From Candidatus Yanofskybacteria bacterium CG10_big_fil_rev_8_21_14_0_10_36_16 (GTDB taxonomy: Bacteria > Patescibacteriota > Minisyncoccia > 2-02-FULL-40-12 > IGHO2-01-FULL-4-A): a DNA stretch of 64,000 nt. A program made the position numbers and the translations under genes. The DNA is taken from assembly GCA_002794035.1 (NCBI GenBank), contig PCXQ01000001.1:3256-67255 (forward strand), written 5' to 3'. Below the pieces are notes generated by a model, which was not told where the DNA came from, searched no databases, and saw nothing but the letters and a program-made list of their open reading frames with translations. This document shows, one piece after another, positions 43,372-62,358 of this stretch; position 1 is the first letter of the stretch, and the number at the start of each line of letters is the position of its first letter.

Positions 43372-43785
43372 CTAAACGAGAAATTGAGCGACAAACCAGA
43401 TGCCGGCAGTAATTAAAAACCATATCAACTGATTGGCTTCCCTAAAATCTCCGGAGCGGTAGTAGCGGCCAACTTGGGTTACGGTAAATATCGCGGCAGT
43501 CATCGGGATAAAGTTAAATGGAATATCAAATCTAAAGGACACGAGATAATATACGATTATTAAAGCTACCGCTTCGGAAAAACCCGAAAAGCGTGATTTT
43601 AAAATATCGCTATGTTTATCTAACAACCCTTTGAATGGGGCATAAATGAACATAGCAATAATTGGACTAATGGCTGCGATATAAAACAATGAGAATAAGG
43701 CCCATAAGAATGGCAAAAATATAAAAGAAGAAATAATAACTATACCCCATAGCAGTAAACTAATTTTTGATTTTATTACATCCAT
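43372..43785 (-). CDS. Hypothetical 4-TM membrane protein
   Basis: Start taken at MDVIKSK. The track's upstream extension is encoded by the hairpin cluster. Confidence 0.35.
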   Translation of the reverse strand: MDVIKSKISLLLWGIVIISSFIFLPFLWALFSLFYIAAISPIIAMFIYAPFKGLLDKHSDILKSRFSGFSEAVALIIVYYLVSFRFDIPFNFIPMTAAIFTVTQVGRYYRSGDFREANQLIWFLITAGIWFVAQFLV

Positions 43786-44012
43786 AAAATTACAAAACCC
43801 GCCGCTAGGCGATGGATTTCTCCACCTGTTACCCTTTCGGGTAACAACCACTGCTGGTGCTCCTAAACGACGGGTTTAGTACCCAGCAGTGGTTTTTACG
43901 TCATACCTCAAATGTTGACATTTTGAGGGTTAGGCAATTTTTAGTTGTTAGACCAATATTATCACAAAACCTTGAAAATCTCCATAATTTTCGTTTTACT
44001 TAAATTAATACT

Positions 44013-48058: not shown

Positions 48059-49702
48059 ATGGAAAAAACAAAAAGATTAGCTGCTCTATATGGTAGAGTA
48101 AGCACATCAAACCAAGAGGACCAGAAAACAATTGAGAACCAAGTTGATGCTCTTAATGAGTTAGCGAACAAAAATGATTTTACCATTGTTCAAGAATATA
48201 AAGATGATGGTTGGTCCGGAGATATTTTAGCCAGACCGGCCCTTGATCAGCTAAGGCAAGATGCAAAAAGTAAAATATGGGATACTTTGTTAATTTACGA
48301 TCCGGATAGGTTGGCCCGAAGATACTCATACCAGGAGTTGATTATGGACGAGTTAAAAGAGGCCGGGGTTGAAGTGATATTTATTACTGTATCTGCACCA
48401 AAAAATCCTGAAGATAAGATTTTGCATGGAGTTCGGGGGTTATTTGCAGAATATGAGAGGGTACGGATTACAGAACGTTTTCGTTTAGGAAAGCTCCGCA
48501 AGGTAAAAAACGGCCATGTATTAACAACGGAAGCCCCTTATGGCTATAACTACATAAGAGGAGACAGAGAAAGGCAAATACACGGTTATTATAAAATTAA
48601 CCCCGAGGAAGCAGAGGTTGTAAAAAAGATTTTTCAGTGGATTGGGGATGAAAAACTAAATATCAGAGCTGTTGTAAGAAAATTAAAAGAAGTAGGAATT
48701 AAACCAAGAAAAGCCAAAAGAGGTGTTTGGGCTACGAGCACAATATCAACAATGCTAAAAAACGGGGCTTATATTGGAGAGGCACATTGGGGTAGTTCGT
48801 ATGCAGTAGTACCCGAAAATCCAATCAAAAAAGAGAAGTATAAAAAAATGAAAAAAAGTAGCCGGAGAATAAAACCGAAAGAAGATTGGATAGCATCTAA
48901 AATACCTGTACCTGCCATAATAACCAAGGAGCTGTTTGCAAAGGTACAAAAACAACTAAAAACAAATTCCTCTCTATGTCCAAGAAATAAAAAATATACA
49001 TATCTACTAGGCGGCAAAATACATTGTGTATGCGGTAAAACCAGAAGTGGAGTAGGCCCACAGCGCGGTAAGCATCTATACTATCGCTGTAATGACAGGA
49101 TTTATAGCTTTCCTATACCTCCTACCTGTAAAGAACAAGCCATCAATGCAAGGATAGCTGATGAATTAGTTTGGAATAAAATAGCAAATCTTATGAGTTC
49201 ACCGGAATTGTTAAAAAACCAAGCAGAAAAATGGTCTGATTCTCGCAAGGTGGGGGCAAGATCTCATATTGGCGATATAGAAACAACAGAAAAGGAAATA
49301 TTAAAGTTAAAAGCACAGGAGGATCGCTATAATAAAGCATATGGTGCCGGGGTGTTTGATATAAACCAATTAAAAGAGTATGTTGCTCCGGTAAGAGAAC
49401 GAATAGAATTGTTAAAATCCCAAATAGTCAAAATCAAACAGGAAGAAAACCAGTCGCAAGACAATGCCCTCCCCTCGCTAGATGAAATCCGGTCATTTAC
49501 GAAAGTAACAAGAAATGCTTTATTTAACTTGAATTTTGAAATGAAAAGAGCCACAATTTTAAATGTTATAGATAAAATTATCGGTACACAAAAACAATTG
49601 AAGGTGTATGGTCAAGTGCCGATAACACAAAATTATGTCACATACAAAACTAGCTATCGGTATAGTCGGGTTGCCCAATGTTGGAAAATCAACATTATTT
49701 AA
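48059..49702 (+). CDS. Large serine recombinase (integrase)
   Basis: LAALYGRVSTSNQ catalytic Ser, resolvase fold, recombinase domain, CxxC zinc ribbon (CVCGK...CNDR), coiled-coil. The 3' end overlaps ychF by 68 bp. Confidence 0.85.
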   Translation: MEKTKRLAALYGRVSTSNQEDQKTIENQVDALNELANKNDFTIVQEYKDDGWSGDILARPALDQLRQDAKSKIWDTLLIYDPDRLARRYSYQELIMDELKEAGVEVIFITVSAPKNPEDKILHGVRGLFAEYERVRITERFRLGKLRKVKNGHVLTTEAPYGYNYIRGDRERQIHGYYKINPEEAEVVKKIFQWIGDEKLNIRAVVRKLKEVGIKPRKAKRGVWATSTISTMLKNGAYIGEAHWGSSYAVVPENPIKKEKYKKMKKSSRRIKPKEDWIASKIPVPAIITKELFAKVQKQLKTNSSLCPRNKKYTYLLGGKIHCVCGKTRSGVGPQRGKHLYYRCNDRIYSFPIPPTCKEQAINARIADELVWNKIANLMSSPELLKNQAEKWSDSRKVGARSHIGDIETTEKEILKLKAQEDRYNKAYGAGVFDINQLKEYVAPVRERIELLKSQIVKIKQEENQSQDNALPSLDEIRSFTKVTRNALFNLNFEMKRATILNVIDKIIGTQKQLKVYGQVPITQNYVTYKTSYRYSRVAQCWKINII

Positions 49703-58418: not shown

Positions 58419-58859
58419 TTAAATGAGGTTTAATAATTGTGTCGGGCTATCTTTTAAATACATGCCCCTTATCTCCTTCTTTATTTTGTCTCTTAATTGT
58501 TTGGGCAACTCATTTTTAAACTGGTTGATAATCTCGGGTGCACAAAATAGATATATTTCGTTTATGGCTCCTTTTTTGTCTACTTCTAATATATAGCTAG
58601 CTGCTTTTTTTATAAACTCTTTATGTATCTTTTCTTTTGGTATTTCGCGGGAAGAACCGCTTGAAATAATCCCAGCAGTTTTTGATCTAATTTCTGAAAA
58701 CCCTTCGTTATCTGAATATTTGGGAGTTATTACTTCTATCTTATTTACTTCCTCTATTAAACCATTCTCTGCTAAATAAAAAATGCCGCTTTGATTGCCG
58801 AAAACAGCTAATAGTGTTGGGTTATTTTTAAATTGTTGAAATTGTTTTGGAATTTGCAT
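58419..58859 (-). CDS. Hypothetical protein
   Basis: 146 aa; no motif recognised. Confidence 0.3.
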   Translation of the reverse strand: MQIPKQFQQFKNNPTLLAVFGNQSGIFYLAENGLIEEVNKIEVITPKYSDNEGFSEIRSKTAGIISSGSSREIPKEKIHKEFIKKAASYILEVDKKGAINEIYLFCAPEIINQFKNELPKQLRDKIKKEIRGMYLKDSPTQLLNLI

Positions 58860-59246: not shown

Positions 59247-59340
59247 GTAATAAATATGCCAAAAATTAAGCTAAATTTCAAGTCACTCTAAATATTTATT
59301 ATGTTCTTATAACATTAAATTATGGTTAAGAAAAAGTAAT

Positions 59341-59640
59341 GGCCCCGCACTTCTTGGTGCGGGGCACGGGGTTGGAGGTTGGGGTCGCCTAGTGAAGGCG
59401 GCCGGCGTGAATGGGTTCAAACCGGATCGGATGAGCCCACAGAGATTCGATCGCGACGCTCCCAAGAGCTCGCGCCTCCTCGGACGAGATTGCCAGAAGC
59501 CCCAAGGGAACCTCCGGAAAAGACTGTTCCTCCTCCTCTGGAGTTCTTCGGCCTCGCCGTTTCTCGTTTCCCCTGACCTTGCGAGGCCAGGAGACATCAT
59601 CTCTCTGCATCTTCTGCATGGGAAATCCTCCTACTATTTA
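59341..59640. other. About 300-bp GC-rich island (candidate structured RNA or foreign fragment)
   Basis: Sharp GC jump; ORFs in four frames overlap one another. Begins with the perfect hairpin CCCCGCAC-ttcttg-GTGCGGGG. An RBS-like AGGAGGA then ATG lies on the minus strand. Confidence 0.3.
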
Positions 59641-59739: not shown

Positions 59740-60108
59740 TTATTCCCATATATTTTCTAATTCTGCCAATATCTCATCAGGAATAGGTATTGCTTTGCCC
59801 ACAGGACTTATGCCGGGGTATCTCCATGCAGATATTATTGTTTTTTTATTTGTTAATGGTATTTCATTTTGTATTTTTCGTTTTAAATTTTTATTTTCCT
59901 GATACATTACCCAAATTTCCTGAGGAGTTTTGCTTGTAGCTTTTTGCATAACCGCCGTGGTCCCAGTCGCTACCCCCTCTTCAGTGCGATGAGGATGTCT
60001 TACCACTCTTTTTATTAAGCTTTCTGATATACCATAATAAACCATCTTGTCTTTAACATGGTTGGTCCACTTATATTTTTCGTTGTCTTTAGGTAATTTA
60101 AATTGCAT
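59740..60108 (-). CDS. Hypothetical protein
   Basis: 122 aa. Confidence 0.3.
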   Translation of the reverse strand: MQFKLPKDNEKYKWTNHVKDKMVYYGISESLIKRVVRHPHRTEEGVATGTTAVMQKATSKTPQEIWVMYQENKNLKRKIQNEIPLTNKKTIISAWRYPGISPVGKAIPIPDEILAELENIWE

Positions 60109-60699: not shown

Positions 60700-60779
60700 T
60701 TCACACCTCTTGTTGATTTTAAAAAAGCTGGAATTATATTGCCATAAATAATAATAAATTTAAAGTAATTCAAATTAAT

Positions 60780-60835
60780 CCCCACACTCATGCATGAGTG
60801 TGGGGATTAAAAACCCCGCCTAGGCGGGGTTTTTA
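60780..60835. terminator. Tandem hairpins: 26-nt perfect palindrome plus family terminator
   Basis: CCCCACACTCATGCATGAGTGTGGGG, then AAAAACCCCGCC-ta-GGCGGGGTTTTT (identical to 60181-60208). Confidence 0.7.
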
Positions 60836-60853
60836 ATGATTTTATTTTAAGGA

Positions 60854-61885
60854 TTAAGGAGTGAAATATATAATCTTTCCATTTTCATAAACATGAAGGT
60901 CATTGGTTTCCTCTGAAACGGTAAAGACCGTTGTGCCTTTAAAGACATAAGATGCGCTTATTGCAGATAGGTGTCGTGTGTGGACTTTGTGCTGGAAGCC
61001 GAATTGGTCAGATAAATCTTTGAATTTGCCCGGGCTTACTTTATTGGCGACTGTTCTGGGGCGCATACCTTCCACCATAACCCCGGAATGTAAAATGTCT
61101 CCGCGCTCATCTATCAATATAGCGCCATCAAAATTTATGGTGGTTTCAATGTCGTGCCCTTTTGTTTTTTTATGTCCGAGATCTAATATACTAATTTTAT
61201 TTTTATCAAAAATATCTTGTTCGCTATCGGATATGTCTGTGTAATTGTTCCATTTATTTTTCCACCCTAAAATAATAAACAGGCCGAAATTTTTCTTACG
61301 ATTCGTGAGATCTATTATAAAATCAATCAATTTCATTTTAAAGTCATAAGGAAGTTTGGTTTTTGACTCTTTTAATGTTTTTGAACTTTCTGATAATTTT
61401 TTTACGGTTTGTGTTTTGATTGGGTTTTTTTTGCTACTGCCCATTATTTTGCCGTATCTATCAAGGAGCCATGAGCTTGATTGTATTTTACCGCCTGCTC
61501 CGGCATTGAATACCATTTTGCATCCTATCTCATTGCATACTTGGACTTCTGGGATGTTGTTTTTAAATCGGTCTCCCCCATTTACAAATATATCAGGCTT
61601 AATTGTTGCAAGCTCACTACACACACTCATGTCTTTAGGATTTTTTTTGTGCTTTGATAGGACAACCTCATCTACGCAGTTTATCGCTTCTATCATTTCG
61701 CGTCTTTCATTTTGGGGCATAAAAACAAAGCCCTTCTTTTTTTTGAGCCAGTTATCGTTATTTAAAATAACAACAAGCTTGTCGCCGAGTTTTTTTGCTG
61801 ATCGGAATAACCTTACGTGACCTATGTGTAGAGGGTCAAAACCCCCGCTGACTGTTACTACTTTTTTATTGCTTGATTTTTTCAT
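60854..61885 (-). CDS. Fusion protein: HIGH-motif nucleotidyl/cytidylyltransferase-like N-domain + diadenylate cyclase (DAC/DisA_N) C-domain
   Basis: N-terminal TVSGGFDPLHIGHV (cytidylyltransferase-like HxGH). C-terminal DGAILIDERGD, HTRHLSAI, TVFTVSEETNDLHVYENG (DGA, RHR-like and VSEETG motifs of c-di-AMP synthases). Confidence 0.55.
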   Translation of the reverse strand: MKKSSNKKVVTVSGGFDPLHIGHVRLFRSAKKLGDKLVVILNNDNWLKKKKGFVFMPQNERREMIEAINCVDEVVLSKHKKNPKDMSVCSELATIKPDIFVNGGDRFKNNIPEVQVCNEIGCKMVFNAGAGGKIQSSSWLLDRYGKIMGSSKKNPIKTQTVKKLSESSKTLKESKTKLPYDFKMKLIDFIIDLTNRKKNFGLFIILGWKNKWNNYTDISDSEQDIFDKNKISILDLGHKKTKGHDIETTINFDGAILIDERGDILHSGVMVEGMRPRTVANKVSPGKFKDLSDQFGFQHKVHTRHLSAISASYVFKGTTVFTVSEETNDLHVYENGKIIYFTP

Positions 61886-62358
61886 TGATTATTCTTAATA
61901 ATTTTTTGTCTTAGTGGTTCCAATCTTGAACCTATACTAATTGCCAGTGCTATCATAACTAGGTTTTTAATTATGTATTGTCCTTCAAGAGTTGGTGTCA
62001 TAAATTGTTGCCATGTAAATTTCGGTAGAAATATCAGTGGCATAAATGTGGTACCCATGTGCAATACTAATATGAATATTGCTATTCTTGTAAGTTTAGG
62101 AATTAAAAACATTACGCCTATTACCATTTCTAGGTATCCAAAAAACGCTATAAATGAAGACGGTTCAAGGAACGGTAGGGTTTTCATTTGAAGTTCTTGA
62201 ACCAAGGGATTTGCCGGGCTTGTGCTTATAACTTTTAGCAATCCGAACCAGAAAAAAATTATGCCAATAGATATCCGTGAAAGCCAAGGATTTATCTTTC
62301 TGATAAATTTCAAAATTTTTAGATCCGCATTGATTATGAAGTTGTTATACATATGCAT
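61882..62358 (-). CDS. DoxX-like small membrane protein
   Basis: 158 aa, 4 TM helices. Confidence 0.35.
   Translation of the reverse strand: MHMYNNFIINADLKILKFIRKINPWLSRISIGIIFFWFGLLKVISTSPANPLVQELQMKTLPFLEPSSFIAFFGYLEMVIGVMFLIPKLTRIAIFILVLHMGTTFMPLIFLPKFTWQQFMTPTLEGQYIIKNLVMIALAISIGSRLEPLRQKIIKNNQ

Follow-up and report, generated by a model that had tools for sequence, protein, structure and literature searches.

A single gene close to the end of a 64,000-nt stretch of the genome of Candidatus Yanofskybacteria bacterium CG10_big_fil_rev_8_21_14_0_10_36_16 (contig PCXQ01000001.1; the whole stretch is hereafter called the window) raises the question of what is done by a protein in which a nucleotidyltransferase bearing a HIGH signature is followed by a module resembling the diadenylate cyclases (DACs) that synthesize cyclic di-AMP (c-di-AMP). 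The source genome, with a G+C content of 36%, belongs to the Patescibacteria (candidate phyla radiation, CPR). Both halves have kept their catalytic motifs almost without change, and the protein is therefore best read as a bifunctional or coupled enzyme; in the full form of this reading, a divergent DAC coupled to an active nucleotidyltransferase, we place about even confidence. The gene and its parts are as follows.

60854..61885, minus strand: complete open reading frame (ORF) of the two-module protein, 343 aa, stop codon included (ORF list and sequence)
61442..61867, minus strand: HIGH-signature nucleotidyltransferase, HldE-domain-II/TagD-like, residues ~7-148 (Pfam PF01467, TIGR02199, PDB, Foldseek)
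61421..61480, minus strand: inter-domain linker of low confidence, residues ~136-155 (pLDDT 48-61)
60857..61420, minus strand: 'mini-DAC' module, residues 156-343, one extra helix and then the DAC core (~178-343) (Pfam DAC, AlphaFold, Foldseek)

The ORF starts with ATG, contains no internal stops and encodes a 343-aa product that is 100% identical to hypothetical protein COV29_00335 of a Candidatus Yanofskybacteria metagenome-assembled genome (MAG). A Pfam scan of the full protein returned CTP_transf_like, DAC and a weak FAD_syn match and nothing else; precomputed public Pfam annotation had already marked both domains on it. The protein showed no transmembrane (TM) segment (maximum Kyte-Doolittle 19-residue mean, 1.0), and the chances that it is a soluble two-enzyme fusion seem to us evenly balanced. 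AlphaFold modelled the full-length chain with a mean pLDDT of 87.1 and a pTM of 0.57 and, given this pTM and the low linker values, the relative orientation of the two domains is not fixed by the model.

When residues 156-343 were modelled alone, pLDDT rose to 90.0 and pTM to 0.88. Foldseek comparison of this C-terminal module (C-module) with the PDB returned DAC domains as all 50 of the 50 best matches (E 1.7e-6 to 1.5e-4, TM 0.39-0.59, identity 15-20%), drawn from the DisA proteins of M. tuberculosis, M. smegmatis and T. maritima, the CdaS of B. cereus, the CdaM/DacM of Mycoplasma, and the CdaA proteins of Listeria, Bacillus, Staphylococcus, Streptococcus and Enterococcus. A profile of the wider clade of related modules likewise reached 14 distinct CdaA/CdaS sequences in the PDB (E 1.2e-5 to 0.02), aligning '...GtRHlsAi..S......tlSEEtG.i..f..G' to '...GTRHRAAIGLS....FVVSEETGGIS' and 'DGAiLi' to 'HDGAVIV'. 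Because these structural matches, the confident model and the clade-profile matches all point to the same fold, assignment of the C-module to the DAC fold is secure, and the domain is clearly divergent. The Pfam check suggested in the preliminary description, which had been made from the sequence, gave a divided answer: the DAC model (PF02457) scored 29.1 bits against the C-module scanned alone, above the cut-off of 27, and 26.2 bits against the full protein, below it (residues 247-338, profile positions 49-119). No YojJ match was found in scans of the C-module and its clade relatives. The motifs on which catalysis would depend, and the segment between them, are located as follows.

61121..61129, minus strand: DGA, D253-G254-A255, within FDGAIL (252-257); placed by translation check, aligns to HDGA of CdaA
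60995..61072, minus strand: clade-specific segment EGMRPRTVANKVSPGKFKDLSDQFGF, residues 272-297, between DGA and RH, containing a ~20-aa insertion relative to CdaA
60968..60976, minus strand: RHL, R304-H305-L306, within TRHL (303-306, nt 60968-60979); aligns to TRHR of CdaA
60908..60916, minus strand: SEE, S324-E325-E326, within VSEETN (323-328, nt 60902-60919); aligns to VVSEETG of CdaA

The three DAC hallmarks that had been noticed in the C-terminal half, DGA, TRHL and VSEETN, were thus all verified at their coordinates, within a module whose best structural matches are exclusively DACs. Residue conservation was scored over 50 homologues of 55-67% overall identity. DGA was invariant in these and in a 120-sequence alignment, and its D was at least 90% conserved across the wider clade; S324-E325-E326 was also invariant in the 50 homologues, with the trailing Gly of SEETG replaced by N, D or S. 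The Glu of the VSEETG motif is thought, from CdaA and DisA structures, to bind metal. R304, H305 and L306 are invariant in the fused family, so that the strict RHR motif is not present, and in the wider clade the third position of RH[x] holds L, I, T, M, Y or F, with no R in any member. DGA and RHR are common to all DACs studied so far (PMC4568413), and in published mutagenesis RHR has been exchanged only as a block, RHR to AAA (PMC3328451, PMC13022847, PMC4568413). The inserted segment accounts for a spacing of 51 residues from D253 to R304, compared with 32 from D171GA to R203HR in B. subtilis CdaA (PMC8573169), and includes the invariant residues E272, G273, P276, P285, G286, F288, D290, S292, Q294 and F297.

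Since D253, G254, A255, R304, H305, S324, E325 and E326 are all invariant, the pattern is that of an active site rather than of a degenerate sensor. Judged from its sequence and model, the C-module is a divergent member of the DAC superfamily that retains the fold, DGA and SEE, with a borderline Pfam score and without a strict RHR. The retained acidic and nucleotide-contacting residues argue in favor of catalysis, and the lost Arg calls for caution. Because of the borderline score, the RHL in place of RHR and the ~20-aa insertion, we infer, and do not report as a finding, that the module is a c-di-AMP synthase.

The N-terminal half had been described as a cytidylyltransferase-like domain of 130 aa with an FDPLHIGH motif; domain and motif were both borne out, and its end was not, as the domain runs to ~148. 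Two of its motifs are the following.

61817..61846, minus strand: GGFDPLHIGH nucleotide-binding signature, residues 14-23 (H20, H23; translation check)
61469..61483, minus strand: QSSSW, residues 135-139; aligns to the 'LNSSS' region of 3glv

In the profile search proposed for it, CTP_transf_like (PF01467) matched residues 14-109 with E = 8.5e-16 and 58.8 bits (cut-off 21), and TIGR00125 cyt_tran_rel scored 58.3 bits (cut-off 27.7). The best NCBIfam model was TIGR02199 rfaE_dom_II, at 81.5 bits against an equivalog cut-off of 181.5, and the TagD model TIGR01518 scored 55.7 bits against an equivalog cut-off of 165.4. An NMN/NaMN adenylyltransferase, considered by analogy with NadM-Nudix proteins, was rejected; NadD, NadR and NMNAT models gave 12-23 bits compared with the 81.5 of rfaE_dom_II. 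Sequence matches in the PDB were to ECT (3elb), the Thermoplasma 3glv protein and TagD (1coz), and Foldseek matched the Rossmann-like fold of the N-domain model to HldC (5xf2, E 1.8e-8), 3glv, TagD (1coz), ECT and CCT, with 26-32% identity in structural alignments to HldC/3glv/TagD-type enzymes. With these proteins and HldE domain II the N-domain shares its fold, the HxGH signature (here H20-I-G-H23), a (K/R)KKG-type loop and a C-terminal SS(S/T); it differs from them in scoring below the equivalog cut-offs, and they carry no DAC domain. Two of the relatives act on different substrates, HldC being a D-glycero-beta-D-manno-heptose-1-phosphate adenylyltransferase and TagD a glycerol-3-phosphate cytidylyltransferase. 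The N-domain is related to HldE domain II and to TagD and assignable to neither, and its substrate cannot be named from sequence.

Across the 50 homologues, G22, H23, N42-N43-D44, W46, K50, K51, E60, R61, S137 and S138 were invariant in the N-domain, and G14, G15, D17, P18, H20 and W139 were at least 90% conserved. The QSSSW motif is the probable counterpart of the C-terminal ISTT-type motif of the nucleotidyltransferase family. Since the signature residues are invariant or nearly so, the conservation pattern is that of a working enzyme, and the N-domain is probably still active, as a predicted sugar- or polyol-phosphate nucleotidyltransferase. Enzymes of the HldE-domain-II/TagD type activate sugar or polyol phosphates with ATP or CTP for cell-envelope glycoconjugates, and the small HIGH nucleotidyltransferases (TagD, CCT, HldC) are typically dimers.

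To what extent the two halves belong together was addressed through their distribution. A homologue search of NCBI, JGI, ENA and Logan assemblies gave 1250 matches, of which the best 120 were all full-length (323-381 aa, 56-67% identity, 95-100% coverage). One genome from each of 185,579 species was scanned, and 53 genomes gave a match, essentially all of them Parcubacteria/Paceibacteria, labelled Yanofskybacteria, Azambacteria, Wolfebacteria, Uhrbacteria or 'Paceibacterota', or mis-labelled MAGs. ORF analysis classified 49 of these 53 loci: 21 have the fused form (318-388 aa), as in the window; 26 have a stand-alone C-module, an ORF of ~185-235 aa whose start falls near residue 160 of the query, and lack an N-domain within 10 kb (a few of these loci end at contig edges); and two Yanofskybacteria loci have the split form, with the halves as adjacent separate ORFs in different frames. 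The survey of architectures called for in the preliminary description thus found the one-gene fusion kept in >100 full-length homologues, 21 reference genomes and the window. The concern raised there, that the halves might be separate genes once a frameshift was corrected, does not hold for the window, where there is one gene and no frameshift; split adjacent genes do occur in the two relatives.

L033 9556-10519: split nucleotidyltransferase and mini-DAC, separate adjacent ORFs
L040 3218-4223: split nucleotidyltransferase and mini-DAC, separate adjacent ORFs

In these split loci, '...SSSWLVSDRSKK' closes the N-domain ORF, and the C-module ORF lies in another frame and has its own ATG ('MEKKIFELIE...'); the point of division corresponds to the linker region of the fused protein (residues ~136-155). 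The free N-domain protein is 146 aa long and 65% identical to that of the window. The C-modules were 53-63% identical to the query, with no difference between fused forms and the others. A neighbour-joining tree (no bootstrap) placed the fused forms, from Parcubacteria and mainly from Yanofskybacteria, in one clade inside a grade of stand-alone forms, with the split forms in its sister group. The parsimonious history is therefore that a stand-alone mini-DAC came to lie next to a nucleotidyltransferase gene and that the two were fused once. Since the module stands alone in 26 genomes and is a separate adjacent gene in two, it does not require the N-domain; the adjacency of the split genes and the monophyly of the fused forms, in turn, support a functional link between the modules.

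The C-module also belongs to a wider group. An exhaustive hidden Markov model (HMM) search with a C-module profile against 1.84 billion representative proteins (E<=1e-3) returned only 107 matches, mostly of 180-260 aa with a short helical N-terminus and a DAC-like core, and Pfam DAC was matched by 53 of the 77 clade relatives scanned (E <= 0.01; best E 4.3e-11). The named members were 'hypothetical proteins' of Candidatus Woesearchaeota (DPANN archaea). In one lineage, P0131/P0227, a NUDIX hydrolase domain is fused to an RHL-type mini-DAC (335-362 aa). Like the window protein, these NUDIX fusions and the stand-alone mini-DACs have RH[L/I/T...], the insertion, DGA and SEE; they differ in having another N-terminal partner or none. 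The modules thus make up a small 'mini-DAC' family of CPR and DPANN, and on at least two occasions one of them has been joined to an enzyme of nucleotide metabolism. By eye, the NUDIX partner in P0131/P0227 looks Ap4A-hydrolase-like. Also by eye, a MutT-type NUDIX gene of ~152 aa that adjoins the fused gene in four loci is strikingly like human MTH1/NUDT1.

L057 6001-7089: NUDIX-mini-DAC fusion, P0227; neighbours are peptidoglycan hydrolases and an ECF sigma factor
L011 6282-6737: MutT/MTH1-like NUDIX gene beside the fused gene
L013 9019-9492: MutT/MTH1-like NUDIX gene beside the fused gene
L028 9036-9494: MutT/MTH1-like NUDIX gene beside the fused gene
L015 5708-6172: MutT/MTH1-like NUDIX gene beside the fused gene

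Among known systems, CdaA consists of three TM segments and a DAC domain, DisA of DAC, linker and HhH, CdaS of YojJ and DAC, and DacZ of a PK_C-like region and DAC (PMC4568413, PMC10249747), and these published architectures agree with the earlier statement that none of the four has an N-terminal partner of the kind seen here. The window protein fits none of the studied classes CdaA, CdaM (1 TM), DisA, CdaS and DacZ, as the partner regions that define them are absent. CdaS is soluble, and a short helical extension precedes its DAC core at the N-terminus, a layout shared with residues 156-343 and with the ~190-aa stand-alone relatives (CdaS 2fb5, Foldseek TMq 0.51 over 163 columns); the window protein differs in its lack of a YojJ match, its RHL rather than RHR, its ~20-aa insertion and the extra enzyme domain before the helix. 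The N-terminal region of CdaS (YojJ) controls oligomerisation and activity (PMC4568413). In CdaA/DacA (TMt 0.5-0.59), DGA, TRH and SEE align with those of the C-module, and the complex of CdaA with GlmM, in which GlmM blocks the active head-to-head CdaA dimer (PMC8573169), would be alike in concept, since there too c-di-AMP synthesis is physically tied to an enzyme of cell-envelope precursors. However, the window protein has no TM helices, is a covalent fusion and not a complex, and has as its partner a nucleotidyltransferase and not a phosphoglucosamine mutase. The best structural matches to the C-module were DisA proteins (M. tuberculosis 9y4s, E 1.7e-6, 159 columns, 20% identity), but in DisA the DAC domain is N-terminal, is followed by a DNA-binding HhH, and the protein forms octamers, none of which is seen in the window protein. 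The layout of the mini-DAC is therefore closest to that of CdaS, and the idea of coupling closest to CdaA-GlmM.

If the protein works as we propose, the C-module would most likely use DGA, (T)RH and SEE to bind ATP and a divalent metal, and two C-modules placed head-to-head would condense two ATP into c-di-AMP, as is the case for DACs generally (PMC8573169). The N-domain, for its part, would activate a sugar or polyol phosphate for envelope glycoconjugates. By analogy, it may also set or gate the pairing of the DAC modules through its own ligand state, a suggestion that we base on the usual dimerisation of HIGH enzymes and on the CdaS and CdaA-GlmM precedents (PMC4568413, PMC8573169). Synthesis of the messenger would then be tied to the substrate or nucleotide occupancy of an envelope-precursor enzyme, much as GlmM acts on CdaA or YojJ on CdaS.

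Several observations weigh against this proposal. For the C-module, RHR is incomplete (an invariant RHL), whereas every experimentally studied DAC has RHR; its Pfam DAC score is borderline; its structural similarity to DACs is moderate (TM about 0.5, rmsd 4-7 A); and a profile made from the fused family only barely reaches the PDB (CdaA 8ofg, E=1.3). The N-domain reaches the equivalog cut-off of no named enzyme, HldE-II and TagD included, and is dispensable in the 26 related genomes with a stand-alone C-module, and the AlphaFold model (pTM 0.57) does not predict the inter-domain geometry. No c-di-AMP phosphodiesterase or receptor (RCK_C, PstA-type) was found in the window or among the conserved neighbours, and the Rfam search gave no ydaO riboswitch in the window and no cis-RNA near the gene, its only matches in the window being one tRNA and a LOOT RNA, both away from the gene. 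Finally, a survey of gut genomes counted zero DAC-encoding Patescibacteria (PMC12901056), so that c-di-AMP signalling is not established in the phylum.

Some of the same observations would be explained if the DAC-like module were catalytically dead and sensed a nucleotide (ATP, c-di-AMP or a related compound) in order to regulate the fused nucleotidyltransferase, in the way that degenerate GGDEF and EAL domains serve as receptors. This alternative, which we consider unlikely, would account for the change of RHR to RHL in the family and to RH[LITMYF] in the clade, for the borderline Pfam score, for the fusion of the module on two occasions to enzymes that metabolise nucleotides (the nucleotidyltransferase, and NUDIX in P0131/P0227) and for the lack of c-di-AMP machinery nearby. 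However, the residues expected to perform the chemistry (D253, E325/E326) and those that bind the nucleotide (G254, A255, R304, H305, S324) are invariant, the module stands alone in 26 Parcubacteria genomes and in Woesearchaeota, where there is no fused output to regulate, and the 53-63% identity of the C-module is equal whether fused or not.

Rather less likely is that the mini-DAC is active with another chemistry or product: it might make a linear dinucleotide of the pppApA/pApA type or some other cyclic dinucleotide, mixed ones included, it might use ADP, or it might chiefly hydrolyse ATP/ADP. On this view, a differently shaped phosphate pocket would result from the replacement of R by L together with the conserved insertion. 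Throughout the clade RHR has lost its third Arg, and the ~20-aa insertion is clade-specific, highly conserved and carries the basic R275/R277 (consensus EGLRP[KR]). Use of ADP, ATPase/ADPase side activities and a pppApA intermediate are also seen in known DACs (PMC3328451, PMC4568413), and the NUDIX partner in the sister lineage, which by eye resembles an Ap4A hydrolase, would be in keeping with such a product. On the other hand, the motifs that contact adenine and ribose align with those of canonical DACs, and c-di-AMP is what one would most simply expect from a DAC fold that has DGA, RH and SEE.

A shade less likely again is that the N-domain is a non-catalytic scaffold, a nucleotide-binding or dimerisation domain that has been exapted, which would make the protein a DAC with a sensory N-terminus. 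Such a role is compatible with the main reading given above, and the N-terminal regions of known DACs are regulatory (PMC4568413); the scores of the N-domain far below the equivalog cut-offs (81.5 vs 181.5 for HldE-II, 55.7 vs 165.4 for TagD) and the lack of envelope-sugar pathway genes conserved alongside would also fit it. Against it, HxGH is kept, K50/K51, R61 and the SS motif are invariant across homologues only 55-67% identical, and the free 146-aa N-domain protein of the two split loci is what would be expected of an enzyme in its own right. Lastly, the very improbable case that a sequencing or assembly frameshift in a MAG merged two neighbouring genes, to which the separate ORFs in different frames of L033 and L040 lend some color, is effectively refuted by the wide recurrence of the single ORF in >100 independent sequences of several sources, 21 reference genomes and the window, by a linker that aligns without disruption of frame, and by the grouping of the fused forms in one clade.

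The surroundings of the gene were compared by neighbourhood clustering of 53 reference-genome loci, three metagenome loci and the window. The conserved neighbours amount to housekeeping synteny, with hpf-secA upstream, genes for an M16 peptidase and for PDDEXK-like and RNase H-like proteins downstream, and also a SecDF-like gene; no envelope-sugar pathway genes were conserved beside the N-domain in this clustering. In the window, SecA lies upstream of the fusion gene, and downstream come genes for a dCMP-deaminase-like protein and for a conserved hypothetical protein of 122 aa. No second DAC or nucleotidyltransferase paralogue was found within the 64-kb window. PADLOC matched neither the protein nor its neighbours, except for a weak dCTPase match on the deaminase, and an anti-phage/CBASS role was rejected as there was no PADLOC match and there were no defence neighbours. 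The features flanking the gene are given here.

61882..62358, minus strand: membrane ORF, 158 aa, weak DoxX match; upstream, its stop overlapping the gene start (ATGA)
60775..60837, strand not assigned: pair of GC-rich hairpins that overlap, 17 nt past the stop codon (terminator scan)
59740-60108, minus strand: ~122-aa protein, one gene further from the mini-DAC gene than in other loci

The 158-aa upstream ORF scored 22.6 bits with Pfam DoxX, below the 23.6 cut-off, formed a singleton cluster in the neighbourhood analysis and lay beside the gene in no other fetched locus; its link to the fusion gene is only positional. The hairpins are likely one or more intrinsic terminators that close the transcription unit: the terminator scan found four sites where 1.2 were expected, and Rfam near 60.73-60.85 kb gave sub-threshold matches only, to terminator-like hairpins. 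A sigma-70-like site, TTTAAA-17-TATAAT (10/12 consensus), was seen inside the gene at 61342-61314 on the minus strand, where the DAC core begins. In AT-rich DNA such a match is probably due to chance, and an internal promoter for a product containing the C-module only was rejected, as the one Met that could start such a product is upstream of the site and the regional count is about that of chance (11 promoter-like sites found, 8.1 expected by shuffle).

For the conserved ~122-aa hypothetical protein ('KYxWTNHVKxKMVYYGISESLIKR...'), neither Pfam nor PADLOC gave a match, and in four loci its gene lies directly downstream of a stand-alone or split mini-DAC.

L006 554-925: ~122-aa protein
L033 10544-11068: ~122-aa protein
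L037 10353-10733: ~122-aa protein
L040 4242-4616: ~122-aa protein

Elsewhere in the window, a ~300-nt patch between protein genes (59335-59640, minus strand) has a G+C content of 59%, compared with 36% for the genome, and ends in a strong hairpin and T-run. Its fold was more stable than expected (z = -3.1; 0/100 shuffles as stable), the ORFs called in it give odd Arg/Pro/Gly-rich translations, and neither Rfam, up to E <= 0.1, nor blastn against the 57 fetched loci gave a match to it; it is a candidate for an unclassified structured RNA. The LOOT RNA (RF03000; 43811-43936, minus strand) scored 86.2 bits over the full model (gathering cut-off 46.4) and partly overlaps a 159-aa ORF (43372-43851). 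A 146-aa protein (58419-58859, minus strand) matched Host_attach (PF10116) at 29.3 bits, above its cut-off, and also the bacterial eRF1-like baeRF families 12 and 10. Between ~32.6 and 49.7 kb, a pooled scan of window ORFs, in which families were not mapped ORF by ORF, detected defence and mobile-element families, namely ResIII (twice), an N6_N4 DNA methylase, GmrSD_N, NERD, a PIF1-like helicase and a serine recombinase (Resolvase); the last is a 547-aa ORF (48059-49702) that starts '...YGRVSTSNQ'.

The fusion is a real, conserved and somewhat unexpected architecture in an under-studied phylum, and it adds one to a long list of DAC combinations. DACs have reportedly been classified into 22 families by Galperin in 2023; a full-text search, which did not cover that census, found no paper on the CTP_transf_like-DAC pair or on c-di-AMP in CPR, Patescibacteria or Parcubacteria. 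Many bacteria and archaea cannot do without c-di-AMP, which acts in potassium and osmolyte balance and in cell-wall homeostasis. We advance only tentatively, as a possibility, that the RHL-type mini-DAC clade may be an unrecognised messenger synthase of the ultra-small-celled Parcubacteria and DPANN, with a rebuilt phosphate pocket that makes c-di-AMP or a related dinucleotide, and that its fusion in Yanofskybacteria to an active nucleotidyltransferase could let the messenger output read the flux of precursor, as a CdaA-GlmM circuit in one polypeptide. If the module should prove inactive, it would represent a degenerate DAC domain used as a sensor, of which we know of no earlier example. If the mini-DAC clade is active, c-di-AMP signalling would extend to Parcubacteria and DPANN, the 'invariant' RHR would not be obligatory, and the fused gene would provide a natural messenger cyclase hard-wired to a metabolic enzyme. 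An active and an inactive module would each be informative, yet incremental to the already diverse architectures of DACs.

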